Positions 1 to 4,954 of a stretch of 4,954 nucleotides of DNA are shown here, in pieces; the stretch's first letter is position 1; the number at the start of each line of letters is the position of its first letter. The translations under genes and the position numbers were made by a program. The DNA is from a virus (lineage: Duplodnaviria > Heunggongvirae > Uroviricota > Caudoviricetes): the IMG/VR virus record IMGVR_UViG_2579779052_000005; one strand, written 5' to 3'. Below the pieces are notes generated by a model. The model was not told where the DNA came from and did not search any database. It saw only the letters and a list, made by a program, of their open reading frames with translations.

Positions 1-294
1 GTTGCGCACGTATTCGGTGAACGCACTATGGCGACGCTGGGGCGTCTTATGAGCCTGCTGTCACCCTTTGACGTGGTGATATGGATGACGGATGGCTGGC
101 CGCTGTATGAATCCCGCCTGAAGGGAAAGCTGCACGTAATCAGCAAGCGATATACGCAGCGAATTGAGCGGCATAACCTGAATCTGAGGCAGCACCTGGC
201 ACGGCTGGGACGGAAGTCGCTGTCGTTCTCAAAATCGGTGGAGCTGCATGACAAAGTCATCGGGCATTATCTGAACATAAAACACTATCAATAA
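1..294 (+). CDS. insB: IS1 transposase InsB reading frame, C-terminal part (5'-truncated by window edge)
   Basis: ORF track 28..294 is the Met-initiated tail; the frame is open from base 1 and matches InsB as I recall it. Stop TAA at 292-294. Confidence 0.93.
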
Positions 295-309
295 GTTGGA
301 GTCATTACC
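287..309. repeat. IS1 right terminal inverted repeat (IRR)
   Basis: atcaataagttggagtcattacc; its reverse complement ggtaatgactccaacttattgat matches the IRL at 4472-4494 at 18 of 23 positions, including the shared core ccaactta-tgat. Confidence 0.9.
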
Positions 310-521
310 ACCAATCTGTTATATTATATATAGCTGCGTGGAATCATAATATCATATATTTTGACTGGCATGTTTACCAAATTTAAGTTGCATCTCAATG
401 GTTTCTTCAGCGTAAACAGAGTTTTTATACAAACTGACACTCTGGGTATCATAGTGTAGTTTTTACGATTGTAAATATCCTGTATGCAGGAACTCATCCT
501 TTTGGATGATATCGCATACAA

Positions 522-1481
522 TTAATTTACCATCAGTCTTAGAGCCAGTTCGTCCGGATAGGGATCGAAGTAATTCTGTGTAAGCAAGTAATCATTAGGA
601 TACTCACCCAGATAATGCTTCAGCAGAGTCAACGGCGCAAGAAGAGGTAATGTGCCAGAACGATAGTTAAGTATAACCTCGCTCAACTCTTTACGCTGGC
701 GTGTACTTAAGTAGTTACTAAAATACCCCTGTATATGCATCAGCACATTCGTGTGATTTTTACGTGATGCAGGTTTTCTGAGAATCGCCATCAGCTTATC
801 ACGATACACCTCAAAGTATGATTCAAGATCCGCCCACTCGTGTATTGCAGCCACAAATGGTCCCATATCTTTATAGCCTGTCTGACTATGCGCCAACAAC
901 TGAAGCTTATAACGACTATGAAAAGCCAATAACTCTCTTCTTGATAATTTCTCCTTGTAAAGGTGATTGAGCTCATGCAAAGCAAAAACTCTTTCAACAA
1001 AATTCTCACGAAGCACTGGATCATGTAATCGCCCATCCTCTTCAACCGGTAGCCAGGAAAACTTTTCCATCAAAGTGCTCGTAAATAGTCCCACTCCATC
1101 TTTACGACCTCGATTACCATTTTCATCATAGACACGCACGCGCTCCATGCCACAGCTGGGAGATTTAGCACAAACCACAAACCCCGATACATCCTTTAAT
1201 TTGTCCATATAAGAACGACTAAACTCTGTCATTCTCTCTGTCACATCCTCATTCTGGTCGTGGCTGAAACACATCCGTATATTTCCTTGCGTCGAGCGCA
1301 CAAGACGTAGAGCAGGACGCGGAACTGGCAGCCCTATAGCCATTTCCGGACATACTGGTCTGAATGTTACCCATTCCACTAATTTGTCCATTAAAAAGTC
1401 AGCTCTTTTGTGACCACCATCAAAACGAACAGCAGAACCGGCCAAACAACCGCTGATTCCAATCACAGGTTTTTTTATCAT
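522..1481 (-). CDS. DUF523 (TudS-like 2-thiouracil desulfurase domain) / DUF1722 (YbgA-like) fusion protein, 319 aa
   Basis: The N-terminus (IGISGCLAGSAVRFDGGHKR ... VCPEMAIGLPVP ... VVCAKSPSCG) resembles DUF523/TudS with Cys at 12, 44 and 104. The C-terminal half (HSQTGY...HTNVLMHIQGYF...YRSGTLPLLAPLTLLKHYL...YLLTQNYFDPYPDELALR) resembles DUF1722/YbgA. GGAGG lies just upstream of the ATG at 1481, though the spacing is short. Recognition is from memory, not a search. Confidence 0.8.
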   Translation of the reverse strand: MIKKPVIGISGCLAGSAVRFDGGHKRADFLMDKLVEWVTFRPVCPEMAIGLPVPRPALRLVRSTQGNIRMCFSHDQNEDVTERMTEFSRSYMDKLKDVSGFVVCAKSPSCGMERVRVYDENGNRGRKDGVGLFTSTLMEKFSWLPVEEDGRLHDPVLRENFVERVFALHELNHLYKEKLSRRELLAFHSRYKLQLLAHSQTGYKDMGPFVAAIHEWADLESYFEVYRDKLMAILRKPASRKNHTNVLMHIQGYFSNYLSTRQRKELSEVILNYRSGTLPLLAPLTLLKHYLGEYPNDYLLTQNYFDPYPDELALRLMVN

Positions 1482-1673
1482 ATCCTCCCCCTTGACTAAT
1501 TCATTAACACATAAACTGTGTAGTGCACGGAATAAATTGCCTTTCTGGCGTCATCACTGACAATTTTTCTGTTATGGACTATTCCTAATATAGTATGAAA
1601 GTTCTTTAAGTGATCGGTCGTAATCATCTATCTTTCATACTTACTCTCAACTATCAAAAGTACAGGATTTATT

Positions 1674-2198
1674 ATGAAGTTATGGCCTGTGTTGACTGGC
1701 ATTGCGCTCTCTTTCACTCTTATAGCATGTAAGGCCCCGACACCACCTAAAGGTGTGCAGCCGATTACAAATTTTGACGCCAACCGCTACCTCGGAAAAT
1801 GGTATGAAATAGCTCGCCTCGAGAACCGGTTCGAACGTGGTCTGGAACAGGTCAGCGCTACTTATGGAAAACGGAACGACGGAGGGATTCGTGTACTTAA
1901 CCGTGGATACGATCCAACGAAAAATAAATGGAGCGAGAGCGAAGGTAAAGCATACTTTACTGGAGATACTAAAACTGCAGCGTTGAAGGTTTCGTTTTTT
2001 GGCCCCTTCTATGGTGGCTATAATGTAATCAAACTGGATGATGAGTATAAGTATGCTCTTGTCAGTGGTCCGAACAGAGAATACCTATGGATTCTGGCAA
2101 GGACCTCAACTATTCCAGATAAAGTAAAAGCAGACTATGTGCGAACCGCTCAAAAGTTGGGATTCAATGTCAATGAATTATTATGGGTTAAACAATAA
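1674..2198 (+). CDS. blc: Blc-family outer-membrane lipoprotein (bacterial lipocalin), 174 aa
   Basis: The translation aligns along its whole length with E. coli Blc as I recall it (shared blocks NFDA.RYLG.WYEIAR...RFERGLE.V.ATY...SEGKAYFTG...AALKVSFFGPFYGGYNVI.LD.EY..ALV.GP.R.YLWIL.RT), at roughly 60% identity. Lipoprotein signal peptide with lipobox LIAC (Cys19) and Lys at +2, which predicts outer-membrane sorting. AGGA lies 7 nt upstream of the ATG. Confidence 0.9.
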   Translation: MKLWPVLTGIALSFTLIACKAPTPPKGVQPITNFDANRYLGKWYEIARLENRFERGLEQVSATYGKRNDGGIRVLNRGYDPTKNKWSESEGKAYFTGDTKTAALKVSFFGPFYGGYNVIKLDDEYKYALVSGPNREYLWILARTSTIPDKVKADYVRTAQKLGFNVNELLWVKQ

Positions 2199-2226
2199 AA
2201 TCCCTACCCGAAATGATACTTATTAG

Positions 2227-2253
2227 AAAAAAACCAGCCTTTGGGGAGGCTGG
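2227..2253 (-). terminator. Rho-independent terminator acting on minus-strand transcripts (between convergent quuD and blc-like genes)
   Basis: Perfect 7-bp inverted repeat ccagcct (2234-2240) / aggctgg (2247-2253) with a 6-nt loop. On the minus strand the hairpin is followed directly by a run of 7 U (complement of aaaaaaa at 2227-2233). On the plus strand it is followed by cuaaauc, so it is a weak terminator at best for blc. Confidence 0.6.
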
Positions 2254-2353
2254 CTAAATCAGGAAACAAGCTGTTATATGATAATAACTACGTTGCGATT
2301 CCAACATTTAAAATGTTAGACTAATGACAATCAGACAGCAACTTTTCCTTTAA

Positions 2354-2731
2354 TTATTTCGAACAATCAGCATCCATCTCCAATCGGAGATCCAACACCA
2401 TCAGCATACCCTCCACTACGCCCTCAGCTTTCTGGAGCATCCTGCCAACCCAACAATCAGATCGCCCATGCTTACGTGCAAGCGCCATAAAAGTCATGCC
2501 GCCGACATAATAGTCCACCAATAAATCATGCAAATCGCTGTTGTTCTTTTTCAGACGGGCCATGCACCCGCAAATGATCATCGCGTCATCGTCACAACAT
2601 TGTGGGCGAGATTTTACTTTTGAAGGAATTAATCCCTTAAAACCGGCGGCAATGGACGACCAGGTCACATCTTCATGATTATTAGCCGCCCACGCTCCCC
2701 AACGCTCAAGAACCATCTGAATATCACGCAT
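2354..2731 (-). CDS. quuD: Lambdoid prophage late-gene antiterminator Q (QuuD-like), 125 aa
   Basis: Translation [88 protein letters not shown]... matches DLP12 QuuD as I recall it. The ORF track's N-terminal extension MWSKL comes from a TTG; the likely true start is the ATG at 2731-2729, with GGAG 8 nt upstream. Confidence 0.88.
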
Positions 2732-2816
2732 CAACTTACTCCACAAAAATCAGACCAGAACGCCAATTACAAGCAAAAATCAACAAAACAGTATTAGTTG
2801 ATTGTTATCTCTGACT

Positions 2817-2954
2817 TCATACTCCTGCTCCTGTCAGGGTTTTGGCGTAATTCTTCAGTATTCGGTAATCGGTCAAAACAGAACCGGGAAAATGATATAA
2901 GTGCAGGCGCACCCAGCGGCGGCGAAGACGTTCTGCCATATAAGACTCAAACAT
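2817..2954 (-). CDS. ylcG: YlcG-like small prophage protein, 45 aa (alternative internal start at 2939 gives 40 aa)
   Basis: Not in the ORF track (too short). Hand translation of the minus strand gives [45 protein letters not shown]. The ATG at 2954-2952 overlaps the rusA stop (TGATG). Size and position between rusA and quuD match ylcG in DLP12; the sequence itself is not verified from memory. Confidence 0.5.
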   Translation of the reverse strand: MFESYMAERLRRRWVRLHLYHFPGSVLTDYRILKNYAKTLTGAGV

Positions 2955-3316
2955 CATTCATCTCCCAGTTCAGTGATGGTCAGCTCCAGCTTCCCACCTT
3001 TGGTAACGGGCATCTTCACAACACGGTAATCAACGACCTGAACATCATCCAGCCAGAAACCTGCTTTGGTAAGTGCGTCAAAAGCAGCTTTTTGCAGATT
3101 ATCCAGGTCACGGCGACGGCGATCCGGCATGTGACACTCAATGCGGATTTTCACAGGAATAGCCAGGCCGATATCCAGCATTGCGTTTTTAATGATTCGG
3201 GCGACGTTATCGCGGTATGCCTGCCCCTCTGCGCTGATGTGCGTGCGCCCGCGATTATGGCGGTAATAGCGATTATTGCTCGGAGGCCAGGGTAATGTGA
3301 TGCTGTAGGTATTCAC
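2954..3316 (-). CDS. rusA: Holliday-junction resolvase RusA (crossover junction endodeoxyribonuclease), 120 aa
   Basis: Translation [108 protein letters not shown]... is near-identical to E. coli RusA as I recall it. Asp70, Asp72 and Asp91 are present. GTG start at 3316 overlaps the ybcO stop (GTGA). Confidence 0.93.
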
Positions 3317-3603
3317 GCCTTAATAACCCCCTCTTTCAGCCAGATAACCTGTGTTCTCGCCATATCTTCCAGCGCGCATTCTTTTGCATACTCAGCATCG
3401 ACAAAATGTGTGCGGCGGTCGATTTCGTCGTGACAGGCAGAACATGCAATGGTGGCAATCAGGTCTGGCGGTTTGATACCGGTACCGCACAATCCAGCCA
3501 GCCGGATATGTGCCAGTACAGACGTCTCAGAATTGCCATTACATACGCCAGGGATTCTTACCTGGCATTCCCGACCACGCGCTGCTTTTCTCAAATCAGC
3601 CAT
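3313..3603 (-). CDS. ybcO: YbcO (DUF1364 family, putative Cys-rich nuclease), 96 aa
   Basis: Translation [96 protein letters not shown] matches DLP12 YbcO. The ORF track starts 13 codons upstream, but the ATG at 3603-3601 is preceded by AGGAGG at a 5-nt spacing (minus strand gcaAGGAGGaatcATG). Confidence 0.88.
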
Positions 3604-3766
3604 GATTCCTCCTTGCTGCCAGTCGCAACCATTTTTTATCAACCAGGCTGGCGGTATACCCTAGCAGTGTTGGTATTTCGGATGGCTTCAGCTCAGGCTT
3701 ACGCTTACGACGATTTGGTACTCTGTAGATGTGTCCGTTCATGACCCGAATAAGCGGTGTAGTCAT
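3596..3766 (-). CDS. ninE: NinE-family small phage protein, 56 aa
   Basis: Not in the ORF track. Hand translation gives [56 protein letters not shown]. The ATG overlaps the ybcN stop (TAATG) and the 3' end overlaps the ybcO start by 8 nt (ATGGCTGA). Position between ybcN and ybcO fits nin-region synteny. Confidence 0.75.
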   Translation of the reverse strand: MTTPLIRVMNGHIYRVPNRRKRKPELKPSEIPTLLGYTASLVDKKWLRLAARRNHG

Positions 3767-4221
3767 TACGCCTCCTGCTTGTCGCGCAGCAGCTGGAACT
3801 CGCAGCTCTGCGGAATAGTCAGGCGGCAGCCAATATTCATCGCCCAGGCTTCAACCTTACACAGGAAGACATACATCTCTCCGGTATCAAGATCGGAGGT
3901 ATGGCGTAACGACTGGATCGTAGTGACTTCGCCGGTTACGACATCAACCAGGTCCTTGGTTTCATAACCGAGGTATGTGTGTTTGAGAGCATCTTTTACC
4001 CATGCTGCAGTAGCGAACGATTCCCCCCTGCTGATGAGGTACTCACTGATTTCGCTGTACCACATGTGGCTGAGTGCATTCTGGGAAAGACTGCGTCTTT
4101 CGCGCCACGGTTTAAGCACCATGCGAAAGCATTTGCCGTCCTCCAGATAAGGCTGGATCTGCTGACCGATAGCGGTGAAGTTACCGCGATGTAATTTGAT
4201 GCCGTCTTGTGGGAGGTTCAC
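3766..4221 (-). CDS. ybcN: YbcN (DLP12-type prophage DNA base-flipping protein), 151 aa
   Basis: Translation [66 protein letters not shown]... matches E. coli YbcN as I recall it. GTG start at 4221 with GGAGGT 5 nt upstream. Confidence 0.9.
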
Positions 4222-4319
4222 GCTTCACCTCCGCAGAGGTCAAACGCTGGATGCAAAAAATCGCAGGTGCATTTCTGCATCTGTGAAGGGAGAAGAGAGT
4301 TTAGATTGTATGTGCGCAT
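4218..4319 (-). CDS. ylcH: YlcH-like small prophage protein, 33 aa
   Basis: Not in the ORF track. Hand translation gives [33 protein letters not shown]. Its stop overlaps the ybcN GTG start (GTGA). Size and position upstream of ybcN fit DLP12 ylcH; the sequence is not verified from memory. Confidence 0.45.
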
Positions 4320-4374
4320 AAACGTCCCCGTTTAGCGCAGAAGTCACCGGAGTTGTTCAGGCTCCGATGACATG

Positions 4375-4403
4375 ATTATGGCGAGTTGATTATGGAAAAT
4401 CAA
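4375..4403 (-). promoter_or_regulatory. Candidate sigma70 promoter for the ylcH-ybcN-ninE-ybcO-rusA-ylcG-quuD gene string
   Basis: On the minus strand: TTGATT (4403-4398), a 17-nt spacer, then CATAAT (4380-4375), about 55 nt upstream of the ylcH ATG. Pattern match only. Confidence 0.25.
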
Positions 4404-4471
4404 ATTAGTACAAATCACCACTGAAGCGTAAATTTTCCAGTTTGTTACGGTGAAAATTGATTTGCTGTGCG

Positions 4472-4494
4472 GGTGATGCTGCCAACTTACTGAT
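4472..4494. repeat. IS1 left terminal inverted repeat (IRL)
   Basis: ggtgatgctgccaacttactgat; imperfect inverted repeat of the IRR at 287-309. Confidence 0.9.
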
Positions 4495-4526
4495 TTAGTG
4501 TATGATGGTGTTTTTGAGGTGCTCCA

Positions 4527-4802
4527 GTGGCTTCTGTTTCTATCAGCTGTCCCTCCTGTTCAGCTACTGACGGGGTGGTGCGTAACGGCAAAAGCACTGC
4601 CGGACATCAGCGCTATCTCTGCTCTCACTGCCGTAAAACATGGCAACTGCAGTTCACTTACACCGCTTCTCAACCCGGTACGCACCAGAAAATCATTGAT
4701 ATGGCCATGAATGGCGTTGGATGCCGGGCAACCGCCCGCATTATGGGCGTTGGCCTCAACACGATTTTCCGCCATTTAAAAAACTCAGGCCGCAGTCGGT
4801 AA
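4527..4802 (+). CDS. insA: IS1 InsA (transposition inhibitor / DNA-binding protein), 91 aa
   Basis: Translation [91 protein letters not shown] matches InsA with its zinc-finger-like CxxC...CxxC N-terminus. Confidence 0.95.
4778..4784 (+). other. IS1 programmed -1 ribosomal frameshift site (A6C slippery heptamer)
   Basis: aaaaaac at 4778-4784, lying in the insA zero frame as tta-aaa-aac, 16 nt before the insA stop. Confidence 0.8.
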
Positions 4803-4954
4803 CCTCGCGCATACAACCGGGCAGTGATGTGATTGTCTGCGCTGAAATGGACGAACAGTGGGGCTACGTCGGTGCTAAATCACGTCAGCGCTGGCTGTTT
4901 TACGCGTATGACAGGATACGGAAGACGGTTGTTGCGCACGTTTTCGGTGAACGC
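4778..4954 (+). CDS. insB: IS1 insB' reading frame, 5' part (-1 frame relative to insA; 3'-truncated by window edge)
   Basis: The -1 frame from the slippery site reads [60 protein letters not shown], matching InsB and running into the same InsB segment seen at the start of the window. It has no start codon of its own and is expressed as an InsAB' fusion. Confidence 0.85.

Follow-up and report, generated by a model that had tools for sequence, protein, structure and literature searches.

A lambdoid cargo interval downstream of Q

The DNA analysed here is a stretch of 4,954 nucleotides (nt) from a viral record of IMG/VR assigned to the Caudoviricetes (IMGVR_UViG_2579779052_000005), and we refer to this whole stretch as the window. 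Our subject is the interval at 310-2353, which is bounded exactly by an insertion sequence, IS1 (last base of its inverted repeat at 309), and by the stop codon of the antiterminator gene Q (end of its open reading frame at 2354). The interval carries two genes on opposite strands, 192 bp apart, and these form a divergent pair, as a preliminary description made from the sequence alone had stated. One gene encodes a Blc-type lipocalin; the other, rudS, encodes a fusion of a TudS/DUF523 domain with a DUF1722 domain (Table 1). This lipocalin-rudS pair is phage cargo, a lambdoid moron cassette, and not a piece of host chromosome.

In intact copies of the cassette the gene order is Q, lipocalin (antisense), the DUF523/DUF1722 gene, a gene for an AraC-family protein of 243 amino acids (aa), holin, endolysin and Rz. 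Two isolated temperate phages show this order, IdasGreatGrand (99% identity) and Lambda_2E9 (91.6%), as does the deposited genome of phage 1H12 (91.6%). In all three the pair stands between Q and the holin gene, which bears out the earlier proposal that the cargo occupies the accessory position immediately downstream of Q. Of four further E. coli genomes sampled, three also showed the intact order, with upstream backbones of two kinds, and the fourth, BL21, has a copy truncated by IS3 within rudS. Our counts for viral contigs rest on 80 IMG/VR contigs that were retrieved with the lipocalin-rudS pair: the pair was kept in all 80, with a spacer of 192 bp (once 191 bp), 79 of them also had Q, and 74 of the 77 with room for the AraC-like gene included it. 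Together with the many Enterobacteriaceae chromosomes that link both genes (see below), this establishes the two as conserved neighbours across genomes, a point on which the preliminary description had made its proposal depend.

The Q-to-holin position holds different cargo in a phage with a related Q. The Q allele of the window has about 88.7% nucleotide identity to the DLP12-type Q, with the homology ending at 2372, inside the 3' end of the gene. In phage 434B, the one related record inspected, which carries a DLP12 segment, Q is followed by nmpC, antisense as the lipocalin gene is here. DLP12 itself has nmpC after quuD (about 89% identical) in the same interval and likewise antisense, so that the parallel with nmpC drawn beforehand holds for both place and orientation. 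The cargo also differs in guanine-plus-cytosine (GC) content from the flanking phage genes (41.0% for 310-2353 against 49.9% for 2354-4221; chi-square p = 3e-8), and possible signals for a transcription of its own are weak promoter-like matches, conserved -10-like blocks and a hairpin 3' of the lipocalin gene.

The chromosome of E. coli 14EC033, like that of other strains, matches all 2044 bases of the interval at 100% identity. The 14EC033 copy belongs to a decayed lambdoid prophage at thrW, beside tRNA-Thr and proA, which three IS1 copies dissect. In the same genome (locus L001, 11413-19577) the AraC-like gene is cut off between two inverted IS1 copies. Some match to the cassette was found in 1152 of 5426 complete E. 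coli genomes (21%), and 1047 of the 5426 carry at least 80% of this prophage-borne rudS cassette, in a species described as having no TudS or RudS homologues (PMC11417400). Cassette copies in several E. coli genomes are interrupted by IS3 or IS1.

The prophage in the window is defective. It is dissected by IS1 and its late-operon context is broken: two IS1 copies in direct orientation (1-309 and 4472-4954) bracket a 4.16-kb prophage fragment (310-4471) in the manner of a composite element. IS1 separates the cassette from the AraC-like gene and the lysis genes, so that the window copy can no longer be expressed along with the latter under Q.

The third cassette gene, that for the AraC-family protein, lies outside the window and has 31.7% GC (L001, 12353-13084; L002, 8130-8861; L003, 2417-3148). 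Among NCBIfam models its product matches YdeO best, at 127 bits, which is below the cutoff of 348. We take the protein to resemble the prophage-encoded regulators of acid resistance and type III secretion of enterohaemorrhagic E. coli (PatE, PsrA/B).

Table 1. Features of the window and their positions, counted from its first nucleotide
Feature	Position	Strand	Description and support
IS1, 3' part	1..309	+	InsB C-terminus 28-294, terminal inverted repeat 287-309; Pfam DDE_Tnp_IS1; RefSeq annotation of the identical locus
AT-rich spacer downstream of rudS	310..521	-	33% GC; leads to the AraC-family 243-aa gene in intact phages
rudS (TudS/DUF523 + DUF1722 fusion, 319 aa)	522..1481	-	Pfam PF04463, PF08349; late-operon orientation
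Divergent intergenic region, 192 bp	1482..1673	.	34% GC
Blc-type lipocalin gene, 174 aa	1674..2198	+	Pfam PF08212; antisense to late operon
Spacer between lipocalin gene and Q, 155 bp	2199..2353
Intrinsic terminator	2232..2255	-	9-bp GC-rich stem and U7; terminator scan
Q-proximal spacer	2256..2353	-	expected, from lambdoid architecture, to hold the Q-dependent late promoter pR'
Antiterminator gene Q (Q82/QuuD family)	2354..2746	-	Pfam PF06530
Prophage block Q, ylcG, rusA, ybcO, ninE, ybcN	2354..4221	- (all)
Second IS1, start only	from 4472		inverted repeat 4472-4494; copy runs on to 4954

The fusion protein

The fusion protein matches PF04463 over residues 7-149 (E = 3e-40) and PF08349 over residues 192-309 (E = 2e-40). 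A TudS-DUF1722 fusion that removes 4-thiouridine (s4U) from tRNA is the definition given for RudS by Jamontas et al. (NAR 2024; PMC11417400), and the viral example assayed by these authors, RudS_vir, is H3V29_gp66 of phage 1H12. The window protein is identical to RudS_vir at 297 of 319 positions (93%), with 22 substitutions and the same length of 319 aa. Its [4Fe-4S] cluster ligands C12, C44 and C110, numbered as for RudS_vir in Table 1 of PMC11417400, are present and invariant among the aligned relatives. The same is true of E46, R55, S107 and S109 and of S239 and R240 in DUF1722, which we mapped from E51, R60, S111, S113, S243 and R244 of RudS_KT (Table 2 of PMC11417400); mutation of these RudS_KT residues abolished or reduced activity (PMC11417400). 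The fusion protein of the window is a RudS, that is a tRNA 4-thiouridine desulfidase, the activity of this particular allele being predicted from its conserved residues. It scores below the YbgA equivalog cutoff. A MerR/LitR/MlrB-type regulator adjoining rudS is typical of RudS, if not strictly defining, and no MerR gene was found in the cassette.

Overexpression of RudS_vir in E. coli lowered tRNA s4U, but less than other RudS enzymes did despite good soluble expression, and RudS_vir gave the shortest lag on 4-thiouracil (PMC11417400). Every RudS variant assayed lowered tRNA s4U and none supported growth as TudS did; RudS genes often lie in light-responsive operons, and RudS led to a smaller UVA-induced growth delay (PMC11417400).

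Among the homologues we encountered two odd RudS fusions (P0002 and P0006) which may be artefacts of assembly or gene calling: a 403-aa E. coli protein with an additional GGDEF domain and a 500-aa DUF3833-RudS protein on a short contig.

The lipocalin

The lipocalin matches PF08212 (E = 7e-43) and the Blc model of NCBIfam, NF007786 (313.5 bits against a cutoff of 267), and it aligns with the sequences of the E. coli Blc crystal structures (PDB 1QWD, 2ACO and 3MBT) at E = 5e-68. Its N-terminus, MKLWPVLTGIALSFTLIAC-KA, has the lipobox LIAC with Cys19 (codon 1728-1730), followed by Lys and no Asp at position +2. The protein is a Blc-type lipoprotein, and its signal predicts sorting to the outer membrane.

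Over the mature part the lipocalin has 63% identity to E. coli Blc, in keeping with the divergence remarked on in the preliminary description, and 75-85% identity to lipocalins whose genes are linked to a merR...rudS unit. It clusters with these operon-linked lipocalins and not with E. coli Blc. Judged by these alignments, it is not an orthologue of the product of chromosomal blc in E. coli and falls into another clade, the one linked to the merR...rudS unit.

The ratio of nonsynonymous to synonymous substitution rates (dN/dS) between two phage alleles is 0.08 for the lipocalin gene and 0.11 for rudS. These low values show purifying selection in phages, by which both genes are maintained.

Both genes and their phage location are already known, and no new category is involved: blc has been recorded among the morons of lambda-like phages from the infant gut, in more than 50% of them (Mathieu et al., Nat Commun 2020, PMC6969025), genomes of the 1H12 and Lambda_2E9 type were deposited by the same authors (PMC6969025), and RudS_vir is an assayed desulfidase. 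The searchable literature, the supplement of the RudS paper included, yielded nothing that links a lipocalin with YbgA or RudS in phages. One paper retrieved with the terms 'lipocalin' and 'prophage' (PMC7724020) proved irrelevant to the cassette.

Two ends of a chromosomal operon

Homologues were sought among 5.8 billion proteins and 185,579 species genomes, each search listing the best 120 of several thousand matches, and genomic context was analysed in 80 genome loci and eight contig look-ups. Among the matches listed, the nearest non-phage RudS proteins (68-76% identical) are encoded on chromosomes of Citrobacter, Klebsiella, Enterobacter, Serratia, Buttiauxella, Salmonella and others, and the nearest non-phage lipocalins are 72-82% identical over their full length and 75-85% over the mature part. 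On the chromosomes the lipocalin gene is divergent, across a spacer of 117-119 bp, from a MerR-family gene (MlrA_helical and MlrA_C), and the operon headed by this merR gene ends in rudS. The full operon is merR-(transthyretin-like)-SnoaL-SDR-amine-oxidase-like-DUF1365-CFA-synthase-like-DUF2878-175-aa protein-DUF3833-rudS (e.g. L012, L021, L178 and L180). Short forms are merR-transthyretin-like-rudS (Enterobacter), merR-rudS (Raoultella, Buttiauxella izardii and Serratia rubidaea) and transthyretin-like-rudS (Huaxiibacter). The lipocalin gene was divergent from merR...rudS in 15 of 28 loci with a close RudS paralogue, and rudS lay on the same unit in all five look-ups anchored on the lipocalin. 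A second RudS paralogue group (55-63% identity) had no lipocalin gene within 8 kb in any locus, and in the one such locus inspected (L052) RudS is encoded between kdpA and a photolyase gene, the position of E. coli ybgA.

The lipocalin gene and rudS are thus linked because they form the two ends of one MlrA/MlrB-like-regulated Enterobacteriaceae operon. The simplest reading is that the phage cassette would be a collapsed copy of this chromosomal locus, in which the end genes were kept and the regulator, its operator and the middle genes were lost. The preliminary description knew of no described functional link between the two proteins and allowed for an uncharacterised stress or envelope module. 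This has been overtaken, as the fusion protein belongs to a characterised family of which a phage orthologue has been assayed (PMC11417400), and the lipocalin gene and rudS share one regulon-like chromosomal unit. The proposed derivation of the pair from the ends of a single MlrB-type operon seems to be new, as a small observation drawn from comparison.

We take the SDR, amine-oxidase, DUF1365 and CFA-synthase genes to form a cluster found in photo-oxidative stress regulons of other Proteobacteria; a literature search did not confirm this, and it found nothing linking a lipocalin with the DUF1365/DUF2878/DUF3833 cluster.

In Kluyvera cryocrescens (L025, 7352-8960) the lipocalin gene and rudS are directly adjacent, 115 bp apart, in a non-prophage chromosomal context. 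Their neighbours encode a DEAD/ResIII-family helicase, a glycosyl hydrolase of family 28 and a nucleoid-associated protein (NA37 family), and the spacer is unlike that of the phage; this locus has here independently collapsed to an adjacent pair. The mlrB(orf242)-orf319 pair of Salmonella pathogenicity island 2 (SPI-2; Salmonella enterica subsp. diarizonae, L026, 7086-8960) is a short form of the MerR-headed operon. Because the operon has MerR genes with 72-83% identity at its head in Citrobacter, Enterobacter, Klebsiella and Serratia, the view of MlrB as 'Salmonella-specific' looks too narrow.

Transcription signals

A terminator lies on the late-operon strand about 100 nt past the Q stop codon (-14.9 kcal/mol, z = -3.9) and is conserved in Lambda_2E9, and we propose it as a candidate tR'. 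On the plus strand the same hairpin stands 3' of the lipocalin gene and has no U-tract. An Rfam hit to 'Betaproteobacteria toxic sRNA' at 2225-2268 (-) reached 28.6 bits against a threshold of 50; it coincides with the terminator hairpin, and we rejected it as most likely a structural coincidence. The Q-proximal spacer shares the blocks TTGCTG and ATATAACAG with the region downstream of DLP12-type quuD, and alignment with that region gave only short common blocks and no confident -35 and -10 elements for pR'. The sequence that best resembles a sigma-70 promoter in the region is TTTACA-16-TATGAT (10/12; -35 at 475-470, -10 at 453-448, minus strand), downstream of rudS; it is aimed at the former site of the AraC-like gene and now reads into IS1.

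The divergent spacer was aligned with 15 chromosomal spacers and keeps two blocks of the chromosomal lipocalin-merR spacer. The first, AATATAGTATGAA at 1587-1599, has the consensus AATATAsTAyGAA, which on the other strand is the putative -10 region of merR. The second, CATACTTAC at 1636-1644, has the consensus CAyACTTA, and its chromosomal copies read CTACACTTAA. Since CTACACTTAA presumably resembles the sigma-S extended -10 consensus, the block may be a sigma-S-like -10 element for the lipocalin gene.

A dyad, ACTTrGACAAA-N9-TtGTGTAAGTTTTA, precedes chromosomal rudS. In Salmonella, MlrB, and also MlrA, represses orf319 (bioRxiv 10.1101/2021.03.09.434593), and the dyad lies at that location. 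This MlrB/MlrA-type operator dyad was not found in the window. One half-site has three matches there, each with three mismatches and all of them outside the divergent spacer; chance alone would give about 0.5.

Origin and possible role of the cassette

Taken together, 310-2353 probably represents the remains of a lambdoid Q-lysis moron cassette of lipocalin and RudS, whose two genes were captured together from an Enterobacteriaceae stress locus and have lost their regulator.

The orientation of the genes suggests how they might be expressed. The lipocalin gene is antisense to the late operon and must use its own promoter, from which the lipocalin would presumably be made in the lysogen, possibly under a sigma-S-type signal. 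Late transcription in the lysogen would stop at the terminator. With Q active, the polymerase would pass the terminator, cross the lipocalin gene in antisense and then transcribe rudS, the AraC-like gene and the lysis genes in sense. The late-operon orientation of rudS behind a strong terminator suggests that RudS is produced upon antitermination by Q; the stx genes of Stx phages are likewise read through Q antitermination. A low level of rudS expression may also come from the retained former merR promoter region. RudS, as a [4Fe-4S] desulfidase, would then convert s4U at position 8 (s4U8) of host tRNA back to uridine, with the likely benefit that near-UV light would crosslink less tRNA and so arrest translation less, be it in the lysogen or during induction, and the lipocalin would serve the lysogen as a lipid-binding protein of the envelope.

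UV light triggers the SOS response and prophage induction, and it also crosslinks s4U8 to C13. It is conceivable, though we consider it unlikely, that a rudS gene freed of an MlrB-type repressor and placed behind Q and tR' couples the erasure of tRNA s4U to prophage induction. Late RudS would on this idea strip the tRNA of its photosensor, avoid the stringent response and translational arrest, and protect late protein synthesis and burst size. A phage copy under Q control and outside MlrB-type regulation offers a testable idea of why a temperate phage should erase a UV-sensing tRNA modification and, if true, this would be a phage-directed rewriting of the host tRNA epitranscriptome in about a fifth of E. 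coli strains.

Several observations weigh against capture of the cassette from a stress locus and a role in tRNA desulfidation. In the two spacers (192 and 212 bp), lenient tblastn and short blastn returned noise and no coding remnants of merR, the transthyretin-like gene, DUF3833 or the other operon genes, so that the collapsed-operon origin is argued from synteny, clade membership and the two short conserved blocks. The closest donor among the matches listed is only 76% identical for RudS and 82-85% for the lipocalin, and a gap of 10-18 points in GC separates the phage copies from all relatives found. The sigma-70 matches in the spacers are weak, and the promoter that would drive each gene is thus a presumption. 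Finally, the lower tRNA desulfidation by RudS_vir and its shortest 4-thiouracil lag (PMC11417400) suggest that tRNA may not be the only substrate.

The preliminary description had ascribed the AT-richness of the pair to acquisition from a donor lineage of lower GC. The interval is indeed AT-richer than the prophage block, by a contrast about half as large as had been stated: the figure of about 32% GC given for the inside of the fusion gene fits only its lowest 60-nt lines and the spacers (33-36% across the cargo interval), while the gene as a whole has 43.3% GC, with 40% at third codon positions (GC3), and ranges over 33-55% in single 60-nt lines, with a mean of 43%. The lipocalin gene has 44.0% GC and a GC3 of 41%. 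The rusA gene has 51.8% GC, beside an earlier value of about 52%. The whole Q-to-holin cargo of an intact phage has 37.9% GC, with phage backbone and host flanks at about 48-50%, which together with the 41% of the cassette would agree with such a donor; no close donor is known, and an unsampled one of low GC is conceivable. Yet all relatives among the matches listed belong to Enterobacterales and have a gene GC of 51-62% and a GC3 of 57-81%, above the phage copies (43-44%, GC3 about 40%) and mostly above E. coli. No match between about 85% and 96% identity, that is between the phage clade and the relatives at 76% (RudS) and 82-85% (lipocalin), was among those listed. AT-rich composition is moreover general in lambdoid morons and fits drift or selection within phages, and long residence in phages with AT drift explains the composition equally well as an unsampled low-GC donor. 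We therefore regard recent acquisition from a low-GC lineage as unlikely.

The properties of RudS_vir lend some colour to a different function, in which the phage enzyme would mainly salvage free 4-thiouracil or 4-thio-UMP in the manner of TudS, with the lipocalin as an unrelated passenger: it combined the shortest 4-thiouracil lag with rather low tRNA desulfidation despite a high level of soluble protein (PMC11417400). This appears quite unlikely to us, since purifying selection acts on the DUF1722 tRNA-binding domain, which is intact together with its Ser-Arg motif, all RudS enzymes tested, RudS_vir included, lowered tRNA s4U while none supported growth as TudS did (PMC11417400), and the conserved lipocalin-rudS linkage argues against a random passenger.

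A module for superinfection exclusion or anti-phage defence, either with a receptor-masking lipoprotein as in Cor and Llp or with a device for tRNA de-modification, is a very unlikely alternative still less favoured than salvage. The interval between Q and the holin gene S commonly carries exclusion genes, prophage-encoded outer-membrane lipoproteins often exclude other phages, and the PHROG families of RudS and the lipocalin, 3275 and 2809, are annotated 'unknown function'. However, PADLOC-DB gave no family match for RudS, the lipocalin or the AraC-like protein; the lipocalin is an ordinary member of the Blc subfamily, its chromosomal relatives lie in a stress operon and not in defence islands, and there is no experimental hint of such a function.

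That the pair might be ordinary host chromosomal genes abutting a prophage remnant, or adjacent genes of a low-GC host as had been allowed for, could draw on the IS1 copies flanking it in the scrambled region of the window, but can be dismissed: in isolated temperate phages the pair stands between Q and the holin gene, and among E. coli genomes only 21% have it, in prophages with backbones of at least two kinds.

Comparison with known systems

The window RudS shares with RudS_vir of phage 1H12 its length, architecture, Cys12/44/110, the catalytic Glu/Ser/Ser/Arg and the position of its gene between those for the lipocalin and the AraC-like protein. It differs in being another allele, and the window copy sits in a defective prophage cut by IS1. 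The Salmonella SPI-2 protein encoded by orf319 (RudS_ST, STM1389) belongs to the same RudS paralogue group, with 69-73% identity; its locus, in the order ssrB-mlrB(orf242)-orf319, keeps the regulator and operator dyad and has no adjacent lipocalin gene, whereas the reverse is true of the phage. The ybgA-phr locus holds a homologous family in a light/UV context (PMC11417400), with E. coli YbgA as a DUF1722-only remnant, but its RudS is of the other paralogue group and differs in its kdpA-phr position and in the lack of a nearby lipocalin gene. E. coli Blc has the fold family, size and lipoprotein signal of the phage lipocalin and differs from it in identity and clade. In Stx phages stx follows Q in sense to the late operon, as rudS does here, with different cargo content; bor and lom are membrane morons of lambdoid phages, and there too the cargo is AT-rich relative to the backbone.

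Other features of the window

The window holds no tRNA genes of the kind found downstream of Q in Stx phages. An open reading frame of 165 aa at 2798-3295 (+), antisense to rusA and ylcG, has no family support and is probably spurious.

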